A model generated the notes under the pieces. The model ran no database searches. It had not been told where the DNA came from and saw only the letters and a program-made list of their open reading frames with translations. A stretch of DNA of 30,950 nt, from the IMG/VR virus record IMGVR_UViG_2695420421_000007; one strand, given 5' to 3'. Within the stretch, counting starts at the first letter, position 1; each line of letters begins with the position of its first letter. This document shows, piece by piece, positions 1 to 28,935 of this stretch. Both the position numbers and the translations under genes were made by a program. The stretch is from a virus. Taxonomy: Duplodnaviria > Heunggongvirae > Uroviricota > Caudoviricetes.

Positions 1-44
1 CGGGCTAAGTTCCCTCAAAGTGATCTACTATTCCGCGCAGCTAT

Positions 45-509
45 TTAGATTCGTCTCGCCTGCCAGAAATTTTTCTGCCAATAGACATTATCAAGTGAGG
101 AACGCATCACTCCCTTGCTGGTAGAGGCGTGGATAAATTGGTTGTTGGTATCGTAAATACCTACATGCAAACCATTTTGTCCGGAACCCGTTTTGAAAAA
201 GACCAGGTCACCAGGCAGCAACTCGTCTTTATCAATTTGCGTGCCGATAGAGGCTTGTTCTTTGGTTTCTCGGGGCAGCTGCAAATCGAAACGATCGCGC
301 ATCGTTACAACCACAAATCCCGAACAGTCCACACCGCGCCGCGTCATGCCACCATAACGATACGGCGTGCCATGCCAGCTTTGTAGCTGGTCGTTCAAAC
401 CGGCAATAACGGTAATCGAATCAGAAAGTCTGGCATTTGGCGGCGGTGCTTTATGGTGGCTACACCCGGCCAGAAACAGTGCTGTGATCAAAATAAGGCA
501 GAAACGCAT
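45..509 (-). CDS. nlpC: NlpC/P60-family lipoprotein (154 aa)
   Basis: Translation has an N-terminal lipoprotein signal with LAGC lipobox and a conserved Cys in a DCSGF motif, typical of NlpC/P60 peptidases; synteny next to btuD as in E. coli. Confidence 0.88.
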   Translation of the reverse strand: MRFCLILITALFLAGCSHHKAPPPNARLSDSITVIAGLNDQLQSWHGTPYRYGGMTRRGVDCSGFVVVTMRDRFDLQLPRETKEQASIGTQIDKDELLPGDLVFFKTGSGQNGLHVGIYDTNNQFIHASTSKGVMRSSLDNVYWQKNFWQARRI

Positions 510-586
510 TCCGTACGGTTCCTCTGTTTTTTATTCTTGCATTAATTTAGCGTCGTAATTACCCGATTTTCAAGATACTAATGAAA

Positions 587-1336
587 TCAGATGGTCGAAA
601 TCAGCATTCTGTGACCTTCGATATCCAGACGGCGAAAATTCATCCCATAGGCCTGCGCCAGATTTGGCGGCGTGAGCACCTCTTCTCTGCGTCCACTGGC
701 CAGCATTTTTCCACCTTTTAGCAACCACGCCCGATGCGCATGACGCAATGTGTGGTTGAGATCGTGACTGCTCATCACAATCGCCAGTCCTTGCTGACAC
801 AGAGCGCTCAGAATTTTGTCTAACGCACTTTGTTGCGCAACATCAAGACTGTTCATCGGCTCATCAAGAAGCAGCAATTGGCCTGCGGGATTGGCTTGTG
901 GTGTGATTTGCAGCACCACCGCAGCAAGACGTACGCGTTGCCATTCACCGCCGGAAAGTTGATTGGTGCTACGTCCGAGTTTGTCATCAAGAGCCAGCGC
1001 CCCTGCGACATCATTCAGTAGTTCGGTACGCGTTTTATCGTGCTGATGCAGTGTCAGATAGTGCCAGACCGGCATTGCAAACGGCGGCGTCTGCTGTTGT
1101 GAAAGATAGGCGCGATGCAGCGCGAGTTTTGTTGCGGACCATGCTTCCAGTGGTTGCCCCGCGAACTGAATACTTCCCTTACCGCTGGTCATTCCGGCCA
1201 TTCGTGCCAGTAAGGTACTCTTACCCGCGCCATTCGGCCCCACCAGGTGCAGGATCTCCCCAGCCCGAACCTCGCCAGAAAGTGGCCCCAGGCGGGTAGA
1301 TTCCGCAACATCCTGTAACTGCATCACAATAGACAT
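587..1336 (-). CDS. btuD: Vitamin B12 ABC transporter ATP-binding protein (249 aa)
   Basis: Walker [13 protein letters not shown] signature LSGGE and Walker B LLLDEP in the translation; length and neighbours match btuD. Confidence 0.9.
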
Positions 1337-1887
1337 TATTTTGCCAACGCCAGTTTAATGCTTTCCATCACAATGGGGTCTTCCGGCGTCATATCCGGGG
1401 AAAAACGCTGGATGACCAATCCGTCCCTGCCAACTAAAAATTTCTCAAAATTCCATAAAATATCATCAGGGTACAGCGGTGCACGACCTTTGCTGACCAT
1501 ACGGGCATAGAATCCGCTCTCTTCCGGCGCGACTGCGGTCGGCGCTGCGGCAATCAATTTTTGATACAGCGGATGGCGTCCTTCGCCGTTAACTTCAATC
1601 TTACTGAACATCGGGAACGTCACCCCCCATGTGGTGGTACAGTAAGTTTTAATCTCTTCATCGCTGCCCGGTTCTTGTTCCAGAAACTGGTTGCACGGGA
1701 ATCCCAGCACCACAAAACCTCGATCGGCCCAGGCTTTCTGAATATTCTCCAACTGCTCATATTGCGGCGTTAAGCCACACTTTGAGGCGACATTGACAAT
1801 CAACAGCACATTACCGGCGTACTTCTCCAGCGTGGTCACTTCACCGTCGATATCTTTCACTACGGTCGTCAGAATGGAATCTTGCAT
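1336..1887 (-). CDS. btuE: Glutathione peroxidase-family protein (183 aa)
   Basis: Gpx-family motifs ([21 protein letters not shown]); stop overlaps btuD start; position between btuC and btuD. Confidence 0.9.
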
Positions 1888-1949
1888 CGTTTCTCCTGGG
1901 TGTGGTCAGTAAAAATCTTAGCTTTTAATCATAGACCGTCTTTTTGCGG

Positions 1950-2930
1950 CTAACGTCCTGCTTTTAACAATAACCAGATAAACACCGGCGCACCCAACGT
2001 TGCGGTGACCACGCCAATAGGCAGCTCTGCGGCAGCTAATGCCAGGCGCGCTACAATATCGGCCAGCAGCACTGCGCTCGCCCCTGCCAGCGCGCAGCCG
2101 GGAAGTAATACGCGATGATCGGTTAAACCACACAACCGAAGAATATGTGGGATCACCAGACCAATAAAGCCGATAGCACCCGCCAGCGCCACACTGACGC
2201 CAACCATCCAGCCGGTCGCTGCCACCAGCACATTGCGCCAGAACCACAGGGGTAAACCCAGTTGCCGCGCCGAGATCTCGCCAAGTGCTAACATATTCAT
2301 CGGCCTGGACTGACAACAGATCCACAACAACACGGGGATCAATGCCAGCATCAGCCAGCTTTGCCGCCAGTCTACGCCGCCAAAACCGCCCATCATCCAG
2401 TACATCAGCTGACGTAAATCAACAGAGGTGGAAAAGTAGATAGCCCACGTCATTAGTGCGCTACAGATAATCCCTAATGCAACGCCAGCCAGCAATAACC
2501 GACTGGTCGAAAGATGACGACGGGCGAAACGTAAGAGTATTAAAGTGATGATAAGCGCGCCAGCAATCGCACACAGCCCTAGCGCCCAGTTGGGGAGTTG
2601 CCCTTGCCCAAGCAATACCGCGGCGATAAGCCCCACGCCTGCGCCGTTAGAGACGCCAAGTAGTCCAGGTTCTGCCAGAGGATTTTCAAACAACGCCTGC
2701 ATTACAGCGCCGGATATAGCCAGCGCCGCACCAACCAGCAATACAGCCAGCGTACGTGGCAGGCGAATTTGCCAGACGAACAGTTCGCCACGAGGAGTAA
2801 ACCAGTCACCTGGCGAAATCCATTGTTCACCGGCGCAAAGGCTTAAGAGAAGCGCCAGCAGCATCAAAACTGACAGGCATAATAACCAGCGAATATTTTG
2901 TCGCTGTTGTTGGCGGGCAAGTGTCAGCAT
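1950..2930 (-). CDS. btuC: Vitamin B12 ABC transporter permease (326 aa)
   Basis: Highly hydrophobic multi-pass protein of FecCD/BtuC permease type; length and synteny match btuC. Confidence 0.9.
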
Positions 2931-2986: not shown

Positions 2987-3013
2987 GAAAAGAAAAAAGG
3001 CCGCAGAGCGGCC
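2987..3013 (-). terminator. Rho-independent terminator (minus strand) closing the leftward prophage operon before btuC
   Basis: Minus-strand reading gives hairpin GGCCGC-tct-GCGGCC (2999..3013) followed by TTTTTTCTTTTC (2987..2998), downstream of the CDS ending at 3123. Confidence 0.6.
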
Positions 3014-3122
3014 ATAAACACAAACAAAAATCAATAAGTTAGGTAATTATCAAAGACTTACAGACACACAAAAACACAGCCAACCACAACAAATAACAGA
3101 GATGTGGTCAATTTGTGGATCA

Positions 3123-3668
3123 TCAGCCAACAAATTTAGCAACAAATACAGCAACCGCCGCTGTGAAAATGGTTGTGCACACTGGCACAATAATGCCACT
3201 CCAACGCCACTTCGTATTATCATCAACCTTGTCAAACCGCCGATTCATCTCATCCATAATCTTGTCAAAGCGTTTATCCATCGCTTCGGTAAGCTCACCC
3301 TTCAGGCTGTTAATGTCTGATTTGAGCTGCTCTTTCAGGTTAGCTGTATCAGATTTAAGCTCACCTTTCAGATTCGCAATATCGCATTCAAGATCACCTT
3401 TCAGATGTGCTATGTCTGCTTTGAGTTCACCTTTCACCTCACCAACATCGGCTTTAGTTGAGAGGTTTGTAGTGCGTTCAGCAAGCGTCGCAAGGTCGTT
3501 TCTTGTTAGCGATAAATCACCTTCGAGCCGCTCAATTCGCCTTTCAAGTTTATCTGACATTCCGCCTCCACTACTGCCGCCATCGCCACCATGATAAAGC
3601 ACATCACGCTCAGAATGCGACACACTACCTGCTGAATTACCGAAAAGATTTCTTGCTACATTACCCAT
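3123..3668 (-). CDS. Hendecad-repeat coiled-coil protein with C-terminal transmembrane anchor (about 181 aa); function unknown
   Basis: ORF track 3123..3677; preferred start is the ATG at 3668 (AGGA Shine-Dalgarno upstream), overlapping the stop of the upstream gene. Translation has five 11-residue LKGELKxDIxx-type repeats and a hydrophobic C-terminus GIIVPVCTTIFTAAVAVFVAKFV. AT-rich codons. Confidence 0.6.
   Translation of the reverse strand: MGNVARNLFGNSAGSVSHSERDVLYHGGDGGSSGGGMSDKLERRIERLEGDLSLTRNDLATLAERTTNLSTKADVGEVKGELKADIAHLKGDLECDIANLKGELKSDTANLKEQLKSDINSLKGELTEAMDKRFDKIMDEMNRRFDKVDDNTKWRWSGIIVPVCTTIFTAAVAVFVAKFVG
3291..3455. repeat. Five tandem 33-bp units inside the coiled-coil CDS
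   Basis: Units at 3291-3323, 3324-3356, 3357-3389, 3390-3422 and 3423-3455 share the core (a/g)AG(c/a/t)TCACC(c/t)TTCA on the plus strand; they encode the 11-aa repeats. Confidence 0.65.
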
Positions 3669-4161
3669 TATCACCATCCTGCGCTTTGTCTTTCTCCAAC
3701 CACTTCAGCACCGCAGACGTACGATAAAGGCTCAGGTAACCACAATTCAGGCAATGCAGCGTGTAATAAGTTTTGCGCATATCAGGTATGCTCTTAACAT
3801 CACCCAAAAAAGCATAAGATACATAATGCTTTATGTTCTCTTTAATTAACTCACTCTGTTCCTCCAGGGGTAGATTGTTAAAATTTTCTGGTTTCTTATT
3901 TTTATCCCAGCAAAGATCCATACTTTCTGGAACAGATAATCGCGACGATCCACATGAAGGGCAGACACTGGAGACCCCCTTCTCAGACAAGAAACGGAAG
4001 AAGATTTCTGGCGTAATCTCCATCAGCCGCTCTTTATGTTTTTTGACACGACTCATCGACTTCTTATTGATTTCATCAGCTTCTTCTTTGCATTTATCTT
4101 CTATATATTTCGATAGTAAATAGTCATATAACTCTTTTTTTGTAGGTTTTTTTATTTCCAT
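3661..4161 (-). CDS. Cys-cluster (putative zinc-ribbon) protein, 166 aa; function unknown
   Basis: Translation contains CPSCGS and CLNCG cysteine pairs, Lys/Glu-rich and AT-rich. ATG lies 2 nt after the int stop with a GGAGGA Shine-Dalgarno inside the int 3' end. Confidence 0.6.
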   Translation of the reverse strand: MEIKKPTKKELYDYLLSKYIEDKCKEEADEINKKSMSRVKKHKERLMEITPEIFFRFLSEKGVSSVCPSCGSSRLSVPESMDLCWDKNKKPENFNNLPLEEQSELIKENIKHYVSYAFLGDVKSIPDMRKTYYTLHCLNCGYLSLYRTSAVLKWLEKDKAQDGDNG

Positions 4162-4163
4162 AG

Positions 4164-5141
4164 TTACATTCCTCCCAAGGGATTAAACCTCACCGCATCC
4201 TGCAAGTAATCCGGCGCAAGATGGGCATAAATCATCGTTGTCTGAATCTTTGCGTGCCCCAGAATTTTCTGGAGCGTCAGAATATTGCCGCCGTTCATCA
4301 TGAAATGACTGGCGAAGGTGTGGCGCAGCGCATGAACAGCCTGGCCGTCAGGAACATCAGGTGCGACCGTTTTGATGACATCGCGAACCAATGAATAATC
4401 CAGCGTCGGAAACACCAGTTTCCCGCCCCGTTTTTTGATCTTTTCAAACAGGCTTTCAGAAATAGGAACGGTACGGTTTTTGCTGTTCTTCGTTTTTGAA
4501 AAAGTGATTCGACAATGAAGAACACGGCGCTGCTCCAGTGCCGCTACCTCGCCCCATCGCGCCCCGGTCGACAGAAGGATTTCGACGGCCAGCCGTTCAT
4601 CGGGATTTTCAGCCAGTGCATCCAGCAACTGAACACATTCAGACTTACTCAGATATCCCATTTCACGCTCGTTAACCTTCATTCCTTTAAGGCCTTGAAC
4701 GGGGTTATCGTTAAGAAAATGGCCGGATGAGATGAGTGCGGTAAACATCGCGCTTAACGCCCCAATCTCTCGATTTATGGTGCTGGGCTGTATCCCCTGC
4801 TCTATCCTGGACACACGTAGCTCGGTGAGCATCGTTGTATTAAGTTTATGCACGCACGGGTCATCCATTGCCTCACTCAAGCGCAGCAATTTAAGGCGCG
4901 TGTTATGCCCTGACTTCATTAGCTGGCCGTGGTATTTCCACCACAAGTCAATAAGCACTGACAGCGGACGGCGATCAATGGAGTTTCCTTTCCACTCATT
5001 GTTATGCTGTTGCGCCAGCACCCACCGCTCATATAAAACTGCATCCGATTTCGTTTTAAATTTTTTGCGAATGCGTTTGCCTTTACGCCCCTCAGGACGC
5101 ATGTCAAGAAGATACCCTCCCGGAATTGATTTTATGCTCAT
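4164..5141 (-). CDS. int: Tyrosine recombinase / phage integrase (P2 Int-like)
   Basis: C-terminal catalytic region HALRHTFASH ... LGHAKIQTTMIYAHL is the tyrosine recombinase R-H-R-Y signature. ORF extends to 5291, but the Met at 5141 (MSIKSIPGGY) gives a P2 Int-like length of 326 aa. Confidence 0.88.
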   Translation of the reverse strand: MSIKSIPGGYLLDMRPEGRKGKRIRKKFKTKSDAVLYERWVLAQQHNNEWKGNSIDRRPLSVLIDLWWKYHGQLMKSGHNTRLKLLRLSEAMDDPCVHKLNTTMLTELRVSRIEQGIQPSTINREIGALSAMFTALISSGHFLNDNPVQGLKGMKVNEREMGYLSKSECVQLLDALAENPDERLAVEILLSTGARWGEVAALEQRRVLHCRITFSKTKNSKNRTVPISESLFEKIKKRGGKLVFPTLDYSLVRDVIKTVAPDVPDGQAVHALRHTFASHFMMNGGNILTLQKILGHAKIQTTMIYAHLAPDYLQDAVRFNPLGGM

Positions 5142-5190
5142 TCGTGAAGCCCCAGCGTTACAAGACCACCATGCCCCCAGCGTTCCATGA

Positions 5191-5502
5191 TTAGCCGGGC
5201 TGTGTGCCAGTCTTGCGGGATTTTTGAGAAGACGATGTGTTTTCTGGCCCATCAGGGGAGAGAGAAGGACTGATCTGCCCAGCAGCCTCATTTGTTTCGT
5301 TACTCATCAACCACGTAGTGTATTTTTTAAATTCCGGGTGCATTGTGATTTTCAGTAAAACCTCCGTTCCCACACCTCGAATACCAGTCTCGTATTGCTT
5401 AACCGTACCAACCGCAATACCTATTGAATCCGCGAACTTTGCCTGACTAAGCCCCTCAGATTCTCGAATTGCTTTTAGCTTCTTTGATATCTCTATTGAC
5501 AT
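5191..5502 (-). CDS. C: P2 C-type immunity repressor (about 104 aa)
   Basis: From the internal Met (MSIEISKKLKAIRESEGLSQAKFADSIGIAVGTVKQYETG...TTWLMSNE...AGQISP) the translation parallels the P2 C repressor as recalled from memory (HTH, then a FTKYTLWFM-like block). Divergent from the early operon, upstream of int. Confidence 0.78.
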   Translation of the reverse strand: MSIEISKKLKAIRESEGLSQAKFADSIGIAVGTVKQYETGIRGVGTEVLLKITMHPEFKKYTTWLMSNETNEAAGQISPSLSPDGPENTSSSQKSRKTGTQPG

Positions 5503-5597: not shown

Positions 5598-5876
5598 ATG
5601 GCAAAAGTCCTTAACACATACGAACAAGCGGATTTTGAGCGTTTGGCGGCGTTCTACCCATACCGTAATGAACATGGGCTACCGGTACTTGAAGAAAGCC
5701 TAGAGGATTATGCGAAACGCACAAATCAAAGCATTCTCGCTGTAAGAAGGCAGGCTGATAGATCGGTAATTCCCGTTACTCAAGAAGGAAGAAACACAAA
5801 ACGCAAAGTAAATCTCTTCGCAATTTTCCTGAAAACCATCAGAAACGCAGAGAAATACGTGCAGATGACAAAATAA
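5598..5876 (+). CDS. First early-operon gene, positional equivalent of Cox/Apl (92 aa); function inferred from position only
   Basis: Divergent from C immediately across the operator region. Sequence does not obviously match P2 Cox. Confidence 0.5.
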   Translation: MAKVLNTYEQADFERLAAFYPYRNEHGLPVLEESLEDYAKRTNQSILAVRRQADRSVIPVTQEGRNTKRKVNLFAIFLKTIRNAEKYVQMTK

Positions 5877-10835: not shown

Positions 10836-11795
10836 ATGAAAATTTGTATCGACGACGGCTCCACCAACATCAAGCTGGCATGGACTGAGAACGGCGAACG
10901 CCGCAACGCCATCAGCCCGAACAGCTTCAAGTCGGAATGGTCTGCGCCGTTCGGTGGCATGCAGCCCGCGAACTACATGCTTGATGGCGTGCGCTATGGT
11001 TTTGATCCGGTCAGCGATCGCTTTGTCCAGACAACCGACACGCAATACCAGTACAGCGATGTAAATGTCATTGCCATTCATCACGCGCTGGTCAAATCAG
11101 GCATCACGCCACAGGAGGTGGATGTGGTTGTCACCCTGCCACTGAGCGAGTATTTCGACACAAACGCACAGCCGGACATGGCCAACATCAACCGCAAAAA
11201 AGCGAACGTTATGCGCCCGGTGGAGTACCAGAACGGCGAAGCATTCACTATCCGTAACGTGCGGGTTATGCCTGAATCCATTCCGGCTGGCTTTAAGGCA
11301 CTGGCTGACATGAGTCCGTTTGAATCCCTGCTGATTGTGGATTTGGGCGGAACCACGCTGGATGTGGCAAAGGTTCAGGGGCAACTGGCAGGTATCAGCC
11401 AGGTGTTTTGCGATCCACACGTAGGCGTTTCTCTGATGGCCGATGCCGTACTGTCGGTGATGGCCACTAACGGTATGCGCACCAGTCACCACATCGCCAA
11501 TACCATTATCGAACATCGCCATGATGAAGCCTGGCTGCGCCAGCACATCCACAATGACGCGCATTACGCCAGCCTGATGGCGGTTATTCGTGAAAAGGAA
11601 GAAACACTGAAACAACGCGTGATCCGCGCGCTGGCGGGTTTTTCGGGTTACGGGCGGGTGATGGTTGTCGGTGGAGGGGCGGAGATTGTGGCACCCGCTA
11701 TCCGCGAAGCCTGCGGAGTTAATGCGACTTTCATCGCGGACGGGGTGCCACAGTTTGCTCTGGTTAATGGGCTGTACGCAATGGACAAGGAGTAA
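10836..11795 (+). CDS. ParM/StbA-like actin-family ATPase (319 aa)
   Basis: N-terminus MKICIDDGSTNIKLAW and internal blocks (YQYSDVNVIAIHHAL, VDLGGTTLDVAKV, VPAGFKA) parallel plasmid R1 ParM as recalled from memory; strong Shine-Dalgarno AAGGAAAA upstream. Confidence 0.8.
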   Translation: MKICIDDGSTNIKLAWTENGERRNAISPNSFKSEWSAPFGGMQPANYMLDGVRYGFDPVSDRFVQTTDTQYQYSDVNVIAIHHALVKSGITPQEVDVVVTLPLSEYFDTNAQPDMANINRKKANVMRPVEYQNGEAFTIRNVRVMPESIPAGFKALADMSPFESLLIVDLGGTTLDVAKVQGQLAGISQVFCDPHVGVSLMADAVLSVMATNGMRTSHHIANTIIEHRHDEAWLRQHIHNDAHYASLMAVIREKEETLKQRVIRALAGFSGYGRVMVVGGGAEIVAPAIREACGVNATFIADGVPQFALVNGLYAMDKE

Positions 11796-11799
11796 ACCA

Positions 11800-12111
11800 A
11801 TGACGACACCAACCAGACGGATAAGTTTCTATCTGAAGCCTGCGGCCGTCAAGAACGAAAGCGAAGCATGCGCCTGGCTGGGCAGCCTTACACCAGAAGC
11901 CCGCAAAAGCGGCCAACGCGTGGCTTTTCTGGCCGGGCTGGCACTTCTGAAAATGAATCCAGCAGAGGCTTACCGACTGGCTGCATGGGCTGACGATGAG
12001 GCGTTATCGGTGACACAAACCAGGACAGAACGCCCCGTGCCACAGCCAGTACCAACCGCACAGATAACCAGTCAGATAGCAGGGAATATCCGGGCATTAT
12101 TTCCTGAATGA
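11800..12111 (+). CDS. Hypothetical protein (103 aa) in the ParR-equivalent position
   Basis: ATG at 11800 preceded by AAGGAG that overlaps the parM-like stop. No recognisable motif; assignment is by position only. Confidence 0.5.
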   Translation: MTTPTRRISFYLKPAAVKNESEACAWLGSLTPEARKSGQRVAFLAGLALLKMNPAEAYRLAAWADDEALSVTQTRTERPVPQPVPTAQITSQIAGNIRALFPE

Positions 12112-24939: not shown

Positions 24940-26976
24940 ATGAGTACCACAACACGAAAATTTAAAACCATTATCACCGATACGGGTGCAAAAAAATTAG
25001 CGCAGGCAACCGCGCCAGATGGGAAACCTGTCCGCCTGACACATATGGCCGTGGGTGACGGCGGCGGTACTTTACCCACGCCAGACAGTAAGCAGACCCG
25101 TCTTGTGCATGAGGTGTGGCGACATACCGTTAATCGCGTCACCCTGGACGCAACACATCAGAACCACATTATTGCGGAGCTGGTTATTCCTCCTGAAACG
25201 GGCGGATTCTGGATCCGGGAAATTGGTGTGTTTGATGAGCACGGCGATTTGATCGCGGTAGGCAATACTGCCGAAAGTTACAAGCCAACCGTTGCCGAAG
25301 GATCCGGACGTGCACAAACATTTCGCACCATTCTGACCGTATCCAGCACTGCCACTGTGGCGCTTACCGTGGATAACACCATGGTGATGGCCACAGTGAA
25401 TTACGTGGATGACAAACTGAAAGAGCATGAACAGTCACGACGTCACCCGGACGCCTCGCTGACCGCAAAAGGCCTTGTCCAGCTCAGCAACGCCACCAAC
25501 AGCACGTCTGAAACGCTGGCAGCGACACCAAAAGCCGTTAAGGCAGTAATGGATGAAACGAACAAGAAAGCCCCATTAAACAGCCCGGCACTGACCGGAA
25601 CGCCAACAACACCAACTGCGCGACAGGGAACGAATAATACCCAAATCGCAAGCACGGCTTTCGTTATGGCTGCGATTGCCGCACTTGTAGACTCTTCGCC
25701 TGATGCACTGAACACACTGAACGAGCTGGCGGCGGCGCTGGGCAACGACCCGAATTTTGCGACCACCATGACTAACGCGCTTGCGGGTAAGCAACCGAAA
25801 GATGCCACTCTGACGGCGCTGGCGGGGCTTGCTACTGCGGCAGACAGGTTTCCGTATTTTACGGGGAATGATGTCGCCAGCCTGGCAACCCTGACAAAAG
25901 TCGGGCGGGATATTCTTGCGAAATCGACCGTTGCCGCCGTTATCGAATACCTCGGTTTACAGGAAACGGTAAACAAGGCTGGTAACGCCGTGCAAAAAAA
26001 TGGCGATACGTTGTCCGGTGGACTTACTTTTGAAAACGACTCAATCCTTGCCTGGATTCGAAATACTGACTGGGCAAAGATTGGGTTTAAAAATAATTCG
26101 GATGCAGACACCGATTCCTACATGTGGTTTGAAACAGGCAACAACGGCAATGAATATTTCAAATGGAGACACCGCATCATTGGCACCCGGCCTAAAGACC
26201 TGATGAATCTTAAATGGAATGCTTTGTCTGTTCTTGTTGAAGCCCTTTTCAGCAGTGAAGTGAAAATATCGACAGTCAATGCACTGAGGATATTTAATTC
26301 ATCTTTTGGTGCCATTTTTCGTCGTTCTGAAGAATGCCTGCATATCATCCCTACACGAGAGAATGAAGGGGAAAATGGTAATATAGGGCCACTACGCCCC
26401 TTTACGCTTAATCTCAGAACTGGCCGGATAAGCATGGGGCATGGTCTTGATGTTACAGGGGATATATTTGCAAACCGTTTTGCAATTAACAGTAGTACCG
26501 GCATGTGGATTCATATGCGTGACCAGAATGTTATTTTGGGACGTAATGCGGTATCCACTGATGGTGCTCAGGCTTTGCTCCGTCAGGACCATGCCGACCG
26601 CAAATTTATGATTGGCGGTCTGGGAAATAAGCAATTTGGCATCTACATGATTAATAACTCAAGGACAGCCAATGGCACCGATGGTCAGGCGTACATGGAT
26701 AATAACGGGAACTGGCTTTGCGGCTCGCAAGTTATTCCCGGCAACTATGGCAATTTTGATTCCAGATATGTGAAAGATGTTCGACTTGGTTCACAGCAAT
26801 ATTATGGAGTGAACAACTGGCAAACATGGAATTTTCAGTGCCCGTCAGGCTATGTACTGACGGGGATTAACGTACAGGATACCGGAAAAAACTCTGCCGA
26901 TAATATTGCAGGCGTTCATTACAGGCCAGTGCAAAAGTATATAAATGGCACTTGGTATAATGTGGCGAGTATTTAA
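24940..26976 (+). CDS. H: Tail fibre protein H (678 aa)
   Basis: N-terminal and central portions of P2 H type; the central block ([23 protein letters not shown]...) is shared with lambda-type Stf; divergent C-terminal receptor-binding region. Confidence 0.88.
25470..25960. repeat. Direct repeat copy 1 (inside H) of a roughly 490-bp tail-fibre segment
   Basis: Matches 30460..30950 at a constant offset of 4990 bp; about 95 percent identical by eye over the last 380 bp. Confidence 0.8.
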
Positions 26977-26977
26977 T

Positions 26978-27217
26978 ATGATGCACTTAAAGAACATAAA
27001 AGCAGGTAATGCTAAAACAGTGGAGCAGTATGAGTTAACAAAGAAGCACGGAGTCATCTGGCTTTACTCTGAGGACGGAAAAAACTGGTATGAGGAAGTG
27101 AAGAACTTTCAGCCAGACACAATAAAGATTGTTTACGATGCAAATAATATTATTACGCAGTGTGAACACCGTTGGCAAATCGGCATTCGTGGAGGCTGTC
27201 GGTCGGGCGAGCGATGA
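26978..27217 (+). pseudogene. tfa: Tail fibre assembly gene, N-terminal fragment only (truncated tfa)
   Basis: [11 protein letters not shown]...[24 protein letters not shown] matches the N-terminus of E. coli Tfa proteins as recalled; reading frame runs into the J-like fragment and ends without the Tfa C-terminal half. Confidence 0.6.
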
Positions 27218-28268
27218 TGCGGAAGGTTACCTGGATTTTTTCAAAGGAGAGATAGGGAAAACACATCTGGCTCAGGAGCTGTGGACGCAGATTGATAACG
27301 GTCAGCTTGCGCCTGACCTGGCTGAAATCAGGACGTCCATTACGGATGTCAGCAATGAAATCACGCAGACTGTCAATAAGAAACTGAAAGACCAGAGTGC
27401 GGCAATCCAGCAGATACAGAAGGTTCAGGTTGATACAAATAATAATCTGAACAGCATGTGGGCTGTGAAGCTGCAACAGATGAAGGACGGACGCCTTTAT
27501 ATTGCGGGTATCGGTGCCGGTATTGAGAATACGCCAGCAGGAATGCAGAGTCAGGTGCTGCTGGCGGCAGACAGGATTGCGATGATTAATCCTGCGAATG
27601 GCAACACAAAGCCGATGTTTGTTGGTCAGGGCGATCAGATATTCATGAACGACGTGTTCCTGAAACGCCTGACGGCTCCCACCATTACCAGCGGCGGTAA
27701 TCCTCCGGCATTTTCCCTGACACCGGACGGAAAACTGACCGCTAAAAATGCAGATATCAGTGGCAGTGTGAATGCGAACGCCGGGACGCTCAACAATGTC
27801 ACAATTAATGAGAACTGTCAGATTAAGGGGAAACTGTCAGCCAACCAGATTGAAGGCGATATAGTCAAAACAGTGGGTAAGGCTTTTCCGCGGGACTCCC
27901 GGGCACCGGAGCGGTGGCCATCAGGGACCATTACCGTCAGGATTTATGACGATCAGCCTTTTGACAGGCAAATTGTTATTCCGGCGGTGGCATTCAGCGG
28001 CGCTAAACATGAGCGGGAGAATAACGATATTTATTCGTCATGCCGCCTGATAGTACGGAAAAACGGTGCTGAAATTTATAACCGTACCGCGCTGGATAAT
28101 ACGCTGATTTACAGTGGTGTTATTGATATGCCAGCTGGTCGCGGCCACATGACGCTGGAGTTTTCGGTGTCAGCATGGCTGGTGAATAACTGGTATCCCA
28201 CAGCAAGTATCAGCGATTTGCTGGTTGTGGTGATGAAGAAAGCCACCGCAGGCATCAGTATCAGCTGA
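27129..28268 (+). pseudogene. J: C-terminal fragment of a lambda J-like tail tip/host-specificity gene
   Basis: From about 27171 the translation parallels the lambda J C-terminus as recalled ([78 protein letters not shown]); the N-terminal bulk of J (about 1100 aa in lambda) is absent. Confidence 0.75.
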
Positions 28269-28287
28269 ATTTTATAACCCATATACG

Positions 28288-28314
28288 GGCGCCAGAAATG
28301 GCGCCTTTTTTATT
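28288..28314 (+). terminator. Rho-independent terminator downstream of the J-like fragment
   Basis: GGCGCC-agaaat-GGCGCC hairpin followed by TTTTTTATT. Confidence 0.6.
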
Positions 28315-28335
28315 GCAGAAAAGCGAGAGGTAATT

Positions 28336-28935
28336 ATGCGTAAAGTTTGTGCAGCAATTTTGTCCGCAGCCATCTGTCTGTCCGTATCCGGTGCGCCTGC
28401 ATGGGCGTCTGAACATCAGTCCACACTGAGCGCGGGGTATCTTCATGCCCGTACGAACGCTCCCGGCAGCGATAATCTGAACGGGATTAACGTGAAATAC
28501 CGTTATGAGTTTACGGACGCGCTGGGGCTGATTACGTCCTTCAGTTATGCCAATGCTGAGGATGAGCAAAAAACGCACTACAGCGATACCCGCTGGCATG
28601 AAGATTCCGTGCGTAACCGCTGGTTCAGCGTGATGGCGGGGCCGTCTGTACGCGTGAATGAATGGTTCAGCGCGTATGCGATGGTGGGTGTGGCTTACAG
28701 CCGTGTGTCGACTTTCTCCGGGGATTATCTCCGCGTAACTGACAACAAGGGGAAAACGCACGATGTGCTGACCGGAAGTGATGACGGTCGCCACAGCAAC
28801 ACGTCTCTGGCGTGGGGGGCTGGCGTGCAGTTTAACCCGACCGAATCCGTGACCATTGACCTTGCTTATGAAGGTTCCGGTAGTGGTGACTGGCGAACGG
28901 ATGCATTTATTGTTGGTATCGGATACCGTATCTGA
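28336..28935 (+). CDS. lom: Lom outer-membrane protein (Ail/Lom family, 199 aa)
   Basis: Signal peptide then beta-barrel-type alternating pattern with C-terminal ...GIGYRI; lies after J as in lambda. Confidence 0.85.
   Translation: MRKVCAAILSAAICLSVSGAPAWASEHQSTLSAGYLHARTNAPGSDNLNGINVKYRYEFTDALGLITSFSYANAEDEQKTHYSDTRWHEDSVRNRWFSVMAGPSVRVNEWFSAYAMVGVAYSRVSTFSGDYLRVTDNKGKTHDVLTGSDDGRHSNTSLAWGAGVQFNPTESVTIDLAYEGSGSGDWRTDAFIVGIGYRI

Follow-up and report, generated by a model that had tools for sequence, protein, structure and literature searches.

The rexA and rexB genes of phage lambda encode a cytoplasmic sensor and a membrane effector, and both are co-transcribed with the repressor gene. In P2, the integrase gene int is transcribed together with the repressor gene C from the promoter Pc. 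P2-like prophages also carry cargo in slots between conserved genes (old/tin, Z/fun, int–att or tail–CI), the content of which is swapped among close relatives. According to a 2026 survey, the region between int and the attachment site (att) is a minor defence hotspot that holds 3% of the systems of these prophages (PMC13586616), and a 2024 preprint reports the interval between a tail protein and CI as a third P2 hotspot (10.1101/2024.10.15.618418). Here we analyse a two-gene cassette, A–B, which occupies the int–att slot of a P2-like prophage in IMG/VR record IMGVR_UViG_2695420421_000007; this stretch of 30,950 nt, integrated in Escherichia coli, is referred to as the window. Gene A encodes a putative zinc-ribbon protein, and gene B encodes a predicted tail-anchored coiled-coil protein that resembles the DUF1640/CCDC90-like family and the Bdr proteins of Borrelia. 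DUF1640-type proteins in bacteria have no known function. The Bdr proteins are encoded by cp32 prophages, associated with the inner membrane and produced during infection (PMC10016077). The cassette is an undescribed instance of the known hotspot cargo of temperate phages.

A and B are exchangeable cargo of the int–att slot

Both open reading frames lie on the minus strand between int and the junction with the host chromosome, as the first-pass annotation of the window had proposed. The int stop codon (TAA, 4164–4166) and the ATG of A (4161–4159) are separated by 2 nt, and the Shine–Dalgarno sequence of A (GGGAGG, 4171–4176) sits within the last int codons. B starts from an ATG at 3668, and its first 8 nt lie within the end of A (ATGGGTAA). 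These spacings are the ones originally given.

We took a census of the slot in 5426 complete E. coli genomes. The integrase is present in 299 of them, and about 281 prophages could be classified. Behind int genes that are 96–100% identical, the slot, which is bounded by the 3' end of int and a conserved att arm, holds one of four alternative contents: the A–B pair of the window (23 genomes), a short A homologue of 132 aa with a nearly identical B (14 genomes), a more diverged A (110 aa) with a B of 145 aa (86 genomes), or an unrelated single gene of 131 aa (158 genomes). Because four contents alternate behind the same int, the pair is not a core partner of the integrase. That it might be a core gene of this integrase family had been named as an objection to the first interpretation; the census rules this out, since only 123 of the roughly 281 classifiable prophages carry any version. 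The data thus support well that A–B is a horizontally exchanged cargo (moron), and the earlier proposal of horizontal acquisition is upheld both by the four slot contents in E. coli and by the other positions of the cassette in unrelated temperate phages. Versions of the pair are present in 123 of the 5426 genomes, among them Shiga toxin-producing E. coli (STEC) of types O157, O26, O103 and O145, and the cassette is frequent in STEC lineages. The 131-aa alternative cargo (L016, 4271–4666; L017, 2082–2477) belongs to PHROG 14142, of unknown function, and has no Pfam or PADLOC match.

Gene A has a GC content of 38.5%, against 44–49% in B, 49% in int, 52% in the host genes and 54% in the remaining prophage. 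Marked AT-richness, previously attributed to the whole module, is therefore confined to gene A and does not extend to B.

The cassette in other temperate phages

A is directly followed by a B-type gene in all 13 loci examined, with an 8-nt overlap in nine of them; in the others, the two genes are spaced or overlap by 0 or 1 nt. The pair lies between int and att in P2-like prophages of E. coli, Salmonella and Klebsiella, adjoins ogr in Providencia, and is found between cI and int in a 186-like prophage of Pectobacterium. In siphophages of Salmonella and Klebsiella, it is situated directly upstream of the tape measure gene (e.g., gp24/gp25 of SPN3UB), and in Yersinia, it stands between tail genes and the genes for a tailspike and an O-antigen acetyltransferase. 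The recurrence of A followed by B in such varied temperate-phage contexts identifies the cassette as a moron. PHROG annotation of the neighbouring genes in the contexts outside the window returned unknown functions only. In Pectobacterium (L019, 3672–4970), A–B shares the cI–int interval with genes for Flk_N-domain and VasI-domain proteins, so that the cargo in the lysogenic operon forms a block of several genes.

These positions bear on the idea that the pair serves integration or excision, as a directionality or regulatory factor coupled to Int or as a membrane tether of the intasome. The start of A 2 nt past the int stop, its Shine–Dalgarno sequence within int and the location of the pair beside int in P2/186-like prophages of E. 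coli, Salmonella, Klebsiella and Pectobacterium would all suit such an accessory. Nevertheless, the cassette sits far from int in several phages: in the tail regions of siphophages, it is remote from any integrase, and in Providencia, it adjoins ogr. This led us to reject an excisionase or Int-accessory function as highly improbable. In addition, 158 genomes with a near-identical int carry the unrelated gene, and the window has a separate gene at the Cox/Apl position (5598–5876).

Gene A encodes a putative zinc ribbon

In an alignment of 50 homologues, C67, C70, C137 and C140 of A are invariant, as are Y133 and W154, which bears out the Cys-cluster, zinc-ribbon-like character first ascribed to this 166-aa protein. 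The AlphaFold2 (AF2) model (predicted local distance difference test score, pLDDT, of 87.8) comprises a 39-residue N-terminal helix, which is confined to long forms of A, and a small alpha/beta domain. One CxxC knuckle (C67/C70) follows helix 51–60, and the other (C137/C140) is located between strands 131–137 and 143–147. With two conserved knuckles on a small beta structure, the modelled protein has the features of a zinc ribbon.

Database searches placed A in PHROG 4293 (E = 8e-23), a family of unknown function. Pfam returned zinc-ribbon matches below threshold only, Foldseek found neither a fold relative in the PDB (best E = 0.73) nor a match in BFVD at E = 0.001 or better, and a profile search of PDB sequences gave no relative. 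Homologues of A are rare, with 56 clusters in a set of 5.8 billion proteins and 91 representatives in a set of 1.84 billion; they range from 60 to 180 aa, and every homologue with a named organism comes from Enterobacterales. Searches of phage records and of plasmids with A (tblastn) gave no match.

Gene B encodes a predicted tail-anchored coiled coil of variable length

B is composed of a disordered N-terminal peptide, a Gly/Asp-rich linker, a long coiled coil and a C-terminal membrane helix. In the AF2 model, residues 1–34 are disordered, a helix spans residues 37–147, and a break at DDNTK separates it from the membrane helix (153–180), at the start of which W154 is nearly invariant. The coiled coil contains about five 11-residue units, detected by Tandem Repeats Finder (TRF) with a period of 33 and 3.2 copies (3332–3436). 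Together with the predicted hydrophobic C-terminal helix, this array agrees with the original description of B as a coiled coil with five 11-residue repeats and a tail anchor. Between otherwise identical alleles (P0142–P0254), the array gains or loses whole 33-nt units: allele P0149 equals the B of the window minus exactly one 11-residue unit and is otherwise identical, and allele P0147 has one unit more. Allele lengths are 148, 159, 170, 181 and 192 aa, and those of the third type are 87, 98, 109 and 120 aa; relatives in Enterobacter and in metagenomes reach 217 and 236 aa. Since units are gained and lost whole, the predicted stalk varies in length in 11-residue steps.

The sequence LSTKAD at the start of the stalk fits the beta-layer motif, and B homologues from Salmonella and of the third type carry FATKSD in its place. 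Hartmann and colleagues found the motif [aliphatic]-A-T-K-[polar]-[DE] at the stalk start of DUF1640 membrane proteins and described beta-layers as a feature of trimeric coiled coils (PMC4786415). As the motif belongs to trimeric coiled coils, B is probably a trimer. B was modelled as a monomer, and the weak matches of a B profile in the PDB are to trimeric GCN4-fusion coiled coils.

The long frame of B is open and starts at the end of A in all 13 diverged loci, so that the N-terminal peptide is very probably translated. An internal GGAGG and ATG (Table 1) offer a candidate second start. The corresponding residue, M37, ends the linker and is invariant in 39 B sequences, the GGAGG lies 3–9 nt before the internal ATG in 10 of the 13 loci, and RefSeq annotates B from this ATG (3560) as a 145-aa DUF1640/CCDC90 protein. 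A dual start is possible, and B may thus also be made as a shorter isoform without the peptide. Truncated or frameshifted B alleles occur as well (e.g., P0205, P0251 and P0252). B belongs to PHROG 9415, of unknown function, and a tblastn search of plasmids with B gave distant coiled-coil proteins only.

Relatives of B and what they suggest about function

Judged by its sequence, B groups with the DUF1640/CCDC90-like/Bdr-like set of tail-anchored coiled-coil proteins and is no orphan. Its match to Pfam family PF07798 (CCDC90-like; mitochondrial MCUR1 and CCDC90B) has a score of 24.5 bits (E = 2.7e-5, residues 53–173), which is below the gathering cut-off of 33.5; several B alleles carry precomputed PF07798 matches, and RefSeq names B a member of the DUF1640/CCDC90 family. 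B shares with this family the tail anchor, as a single C-terminal transmembrane helix is predicted, and a stalk that opens with the beta-layer motif in the form [aliphatic]-A/S-T-K-x-[DE]. In contrast to these proteins, B has no head domain of the mitochondrial type but possesses a Gly-rich linker, an N-terminal peptide and an obligate upstream partner gene.

A single-comparison BLASTP of B with a Borrelia Bdr protein gave an alignment (E = 6e-15) that covers the 11-residue repeats together with the C-terminal anchor. The KID-repeat Bdr proteins occur on cp32 prophages and linear plasmids. Like B, they are carried by prophages, and they are associated with the inner membrane, as is proposed for B. 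In both, 11-residue repeats with similar units (LKSDI... in each) and variable copy number form a central array, KW precedes the C-terminal hydrophobic anchor, which aligns in the two, and the CCDC90-like Pfam matches are below threshold. However, the KID/KIE tripeptide of Bdr is replaced by SDI, ADI or CDI in B, no zinc-ribbon partner gene is present beside the single bdr locus inspected, and the host phylum differs. Sequence identity is 29–36%, mostly in repetitive coiled coil, and the likeness could be due to convergence.

The grouping of B with DUF1640/Bdr-like scaffolds raises the question of whether the cassette acts on the host rather than on phages. As a factor of lysogenic conversion or host physiology, a membrane-tethered scaffold (cf. 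Bdr and MCUR1/CCDC90B) would alter an inner-membrane process such as stress tolerance, transport, division or virulence. The prophage-borne, inner-membrane-associated Bdr proteins made during infection fit this picture, as do the conversion genes that adjoin the cassette (O-antigen acetyltransferase, lipoproteins) and its frequency in STEC lineages. We nevertheless regard such a role as rather unlikely, given that neither A nor B has a domain of a host pathway and that the cassette is limited to temperate phages of Enterobacterales, with none on plasmids by tblastn. Moreover, A and the B peptide diversify and are swapped rapidly, as would be expected of a conflict system more than of a housekeeping scaffold.

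The C-terminal part of B-family proteins also attracts weak matches to a holin PHROG and to XhlA (PF10779) in Pfam. B has in common with XhlA and small holin-like proteins a short cytoplasmic coiled coil, a D-N-x-K-W motif and a single C-terminal membrane helix. XhlA matches were obtained for the B homologues of SPN3UB (26.4 bits) and of a Klebsiella phage (19.6 bits), the cut-off being 34.7, and none was listed in the Pfam search with the B of the window. In contrast to XhlA, B is encoded outside any lysis cassette and has a zinc-ribbon protein as its partner in every case. B could on this basis be a holin- or XhlA-like toxin inhibited by A, in a toxin–antitoxin-like addiction module or a lysis helper of the phage's own cycle, with long and short B acting like holin and antiholin. 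The gene order and the 1- to 8-nt overlaps resemble those of antitoxin–toxin operons, the conserved internal GGAGG–ATG suggests two B isoforms, truncated or frameshifted B alleles are found, and a Hok/Gef toxin gene lies across att in the prophage of strain RM8426. We judge this explanation distinctly unlikely, even so: the cassette never occurs in a lysis cassette, holin, endolysin and spanin genes are already present in the prophage, the cassette is missing from over half of the prophages that are otherwise similar, and the XhlA and holin matches fall below curated thresholds.

Mosaic structure and a possible role in phage exclusion

Comparison of the loci reveals a mosaic breakpoint at the Gly/Asp-rich linker of B. 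Between the window and locus L003, the stalk is 99% identical, whereas A is 29% and the N-terminal peptide 32% identical. SPN3UB and phage 29485 (L013 and L015) show the reverse, with identities of 90% for A, 67% for the peptide and 22% for the stalk. Over 78 non-independent locus pairs, the Spearman correlation of A identity is 0.47 with peptide identity and 0.18 with stalk identity. The peptide thus appears to travel with the type of A and not with the stalk, and it may represent a docking site for A.

We tentatively favour the reading that A–B protects the lysogen against other phages by exclusion or abortive infection, and hold it with rather less than even confidence. A role in conflict between phages is preferred because of the location in a defence hotspot, the swapping and divergence of A and the peptide, the restriction to temperate phages and the lysogenic-conversion neighbours. 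A and B would form a self-contained, translationally coupled moron cassette, appended to the C–int lysogenic operon and made in the lysogen. B would be a tail-anchored inner-membrane protein with a cytoplasmic DUF1640/Bdr-type coiled coil, probably trimeric and adjustable in length in 11-residue steps, and the flexible Gly/Asp-rich linker atop it would bear the short N-terminal peptide. This peptide may recruit the zinc-ribbon protein A, which could serve at the cytoplasmic membrane face as a sensor or adaptor, with B as a scaffold or holin-like effector that brings about the exclusion of incoming genomes or abortive infection. The weak XhlA and holin PHROG matches in the C-terminal part of B-family proteins would suit such an effector.

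Such an arrangement would be analogous to lambda rexAB, likewise a two-gene module in a prophage repressor operon with one cytoplasmic and one membrane protein. The analogy is one of function only: B, with one C-terminal helix and a long stalk, differs from the polytopic RexB, no Rex family appears among the Pfam, PHROG and PADLOC results for A and B, and we found no similarity of sequence or fold.

Several observations weigh against an anti-phage role. Hotspots also hold cargo unrelated to defence, and in the Pfam, fold and profile searches, A has no recognizable enzymatic or nucleic-acid-binding domain. We searched for defence systems with the PADLOC-DB v2.0.0 hidden Markov models; the best match of A was DUF3800_VII (E = 0.005), which is not significant, and the matches of B to LmuB, LeoBC and ZorA (E = 3.5e-5 or weaker) cover coiled-coil stretches only and were discarded as matches of composition. 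Of the described proteins, Bdr stands closest to B, and it has no known role; according to a 2023 review, its function was yet to be discovered (PMC10016077). The correlation between A and the peptide could be explained by their physical adjacency on the DNA. Finally, a promoter scan detected no sigma-70-like site upstream of A in the four contexts scanned, so that expression in the lysogen would rest on read-through from Pc.

Beyond A and B themselves, eight homologues and alternative cargo proteins gave one marginal PADLOC match (LmuB, E = 0.0075) and otherwise none. The statement of the first-pass annotation that neither protein was recognised as belonging to a described defence family therefore holds for the PADLOC models, with no match beyond coiled-coil noise. 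A–B shares with P2-like hotspot cargo its slot between conserved genes and its exchange among close relatives, yet it was not found among the systems named in the P2 hotspot papers, as far as these can be searched, and matches no PADLOC model. The literature on DUF1640, on XhlA and on tail-anchored exclusion proteins, searched also by RefSeq accession, yielded no study of the pair.

A more far-reaching version of the phage-exclusion reading, which we consider conceivable but doubtful, is that A–B is the first example of an undescribed prophage family of membrane-tethered, two-component anti-phage systems. In these, a fast-evolving zinc-ribbon sensor would be flexibly leashed to the tip of a trimeric, tail-anchored stalk of variable length, and the single membrane helix of the stalk or a second isoform from the internal start would execute exclusion or abortive infection. 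Bacterial proteins of the DUF1640/Bdr type, among them Bdr of the Borrelia prophages, would thereby be given a first function. If the cassette does exclude phages, it would be a compact system of about 1 kb that has no enzyme domain and a stalk that changes length in 11-residue steps, and the int–att slot of P2-like prophages would be a productive place to look for further systems of this kind. If it does not, it is an ordinary uncharacterised moron. Its unusual anatomy makes it a worthwhile experimental target, and through its likeness to Bdr, a family of undiscovered function (PMC10016077) gains a tractable model in E. coli.

The att core, transcription and layout of the locus

The sequence of the P2-like prophage begins at 3014 of the window, and related genomes place the prophage between btuC and ihfA (Table 1). 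A strong terminator had been assigned to the module downstream of B. The terminator scan confirms a hairpin there (GGCCGC-TCT-GCGGCC followed by a T-run, 3013..2989), which occurs once in the window, but the hairpin is not a feature of the cargo. Prophage-free E. coli genomes match the window only up to 3013, and the identical 25 bp (2989–3013) recur at attR beside ihfA in strain RM8426; the hairpin is thus the att core and serves ihfA as terminator as well. Through integration, ihfA (at attR) and the C–int–cargo operon of the prophage (at attL) thereby each receive a terminator. In a prophage that carries the unrelated single gene, the match to the window extends to 3123, and the att arm (3014..3122) is common to prophages of differing cargo. 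The Yersinia cassette has terminators on both sides, while in the window, the att core acts as the terminator.

No promoter or terminator is predicted between int, A and B in the window, and there is no room for one between them. Since A abuts int and has no separate promoter-like site, the simplest reading is that C, int, A and B are co-transcribed and hence expressed in the lysogen.

Table 1. Positions of the genes and sequence elements discussed in the text
Feature	Position in the window	Strand	Basis or remark
nlpC, btuD, btuE, btuC (E. coli host genes)	1..2930	minus	
att core (25 bp), ihfA terminator hairpin	2989..3013	minus	Terminator scan; copy at attR
Phage-side att arm (109 nt), from B to the att core	3014..3122		Homology limits in other genomes
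Gene B, long form (181 aa)	3123..3668	minus	Open reading frame
Predicted C-terminal membrane anchor of B, preceded by DDNTKW	3126..3212	minus	AF2 helix 153–180; grand average of hydropathy +1.29 (residues 153–181)
11-residue (33-nt) repeat array of B	3288..3452	minus	TRF and listing of units
LSTKAD of B, fits beta-layer motif	3447..3464 (residues 69–74)	minus	Sequence; T71 and D74 nearly invariant
Internal GGAGG (3565–3569) and ATG (3558–3560) of B	3558..3569	minus	Candidate second start; 145-aa B without the N-terminal peptide
Gene A, putative zinc-ribbon protein (166 aa)	3661..4161	minus	Open reading frame
int, tyrosine integrase	4164..5141	minus	Pfam Int_N (E = 1.5e-28), Phage_integrase (E = 1e-19)
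C-type immunity repressor (helix-turn-helix), first gene of the lysogenic operon	5191..5499	minus	Pfam HTH_3 (E = 1e-9); RefSeq: helix-turn-helix transcriptional regulator

The int frame is open for 50 codons upstream of the annotated start at 5141 (window 4164–5291) and would then overlap the end of the C gene; the 325-aa form is favoured by RefSeq and by the positions of the Pfam domains. On the attR side of the RM8426 prophage (L024, 24796–28159), we found a short gpD-like gene, a gene for a 500-aa PIN-domain protein and ogr, followed by the Hok/Gef toxin gene, which is located between ogr and attR. Accessory genes are thus present on both flanks of attP.

Other features of the prophage

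Another hotspot of the prophage, between gpA and the portal gene (the old/tin position of P2; window 10836–12111), holds a gene for an actin-like segregation protein of the ParM/StbA type (Pfam, E = 3e-82). A partitioning/stability protein is annotated beside it in RefSeq, so that a plasmid-type partition system, which has no PADLOC match, is found within an integrated P2-like prophage.

At the other end of the window, a P2-type tail-fibre gene (24940–26976) is followed by a fragment of the receptor-binding C-terminus of a lambda-type J protein (TTG start, 379 aa) and a Lom outer-membrane protein (27129–28935). The match to the RM8426 prophage, which is otherwise similar, ends at 25543 of the window, and the tail-fibre region looks like either a junction with lambdoid prophage sequence or a swap of the fibre module.

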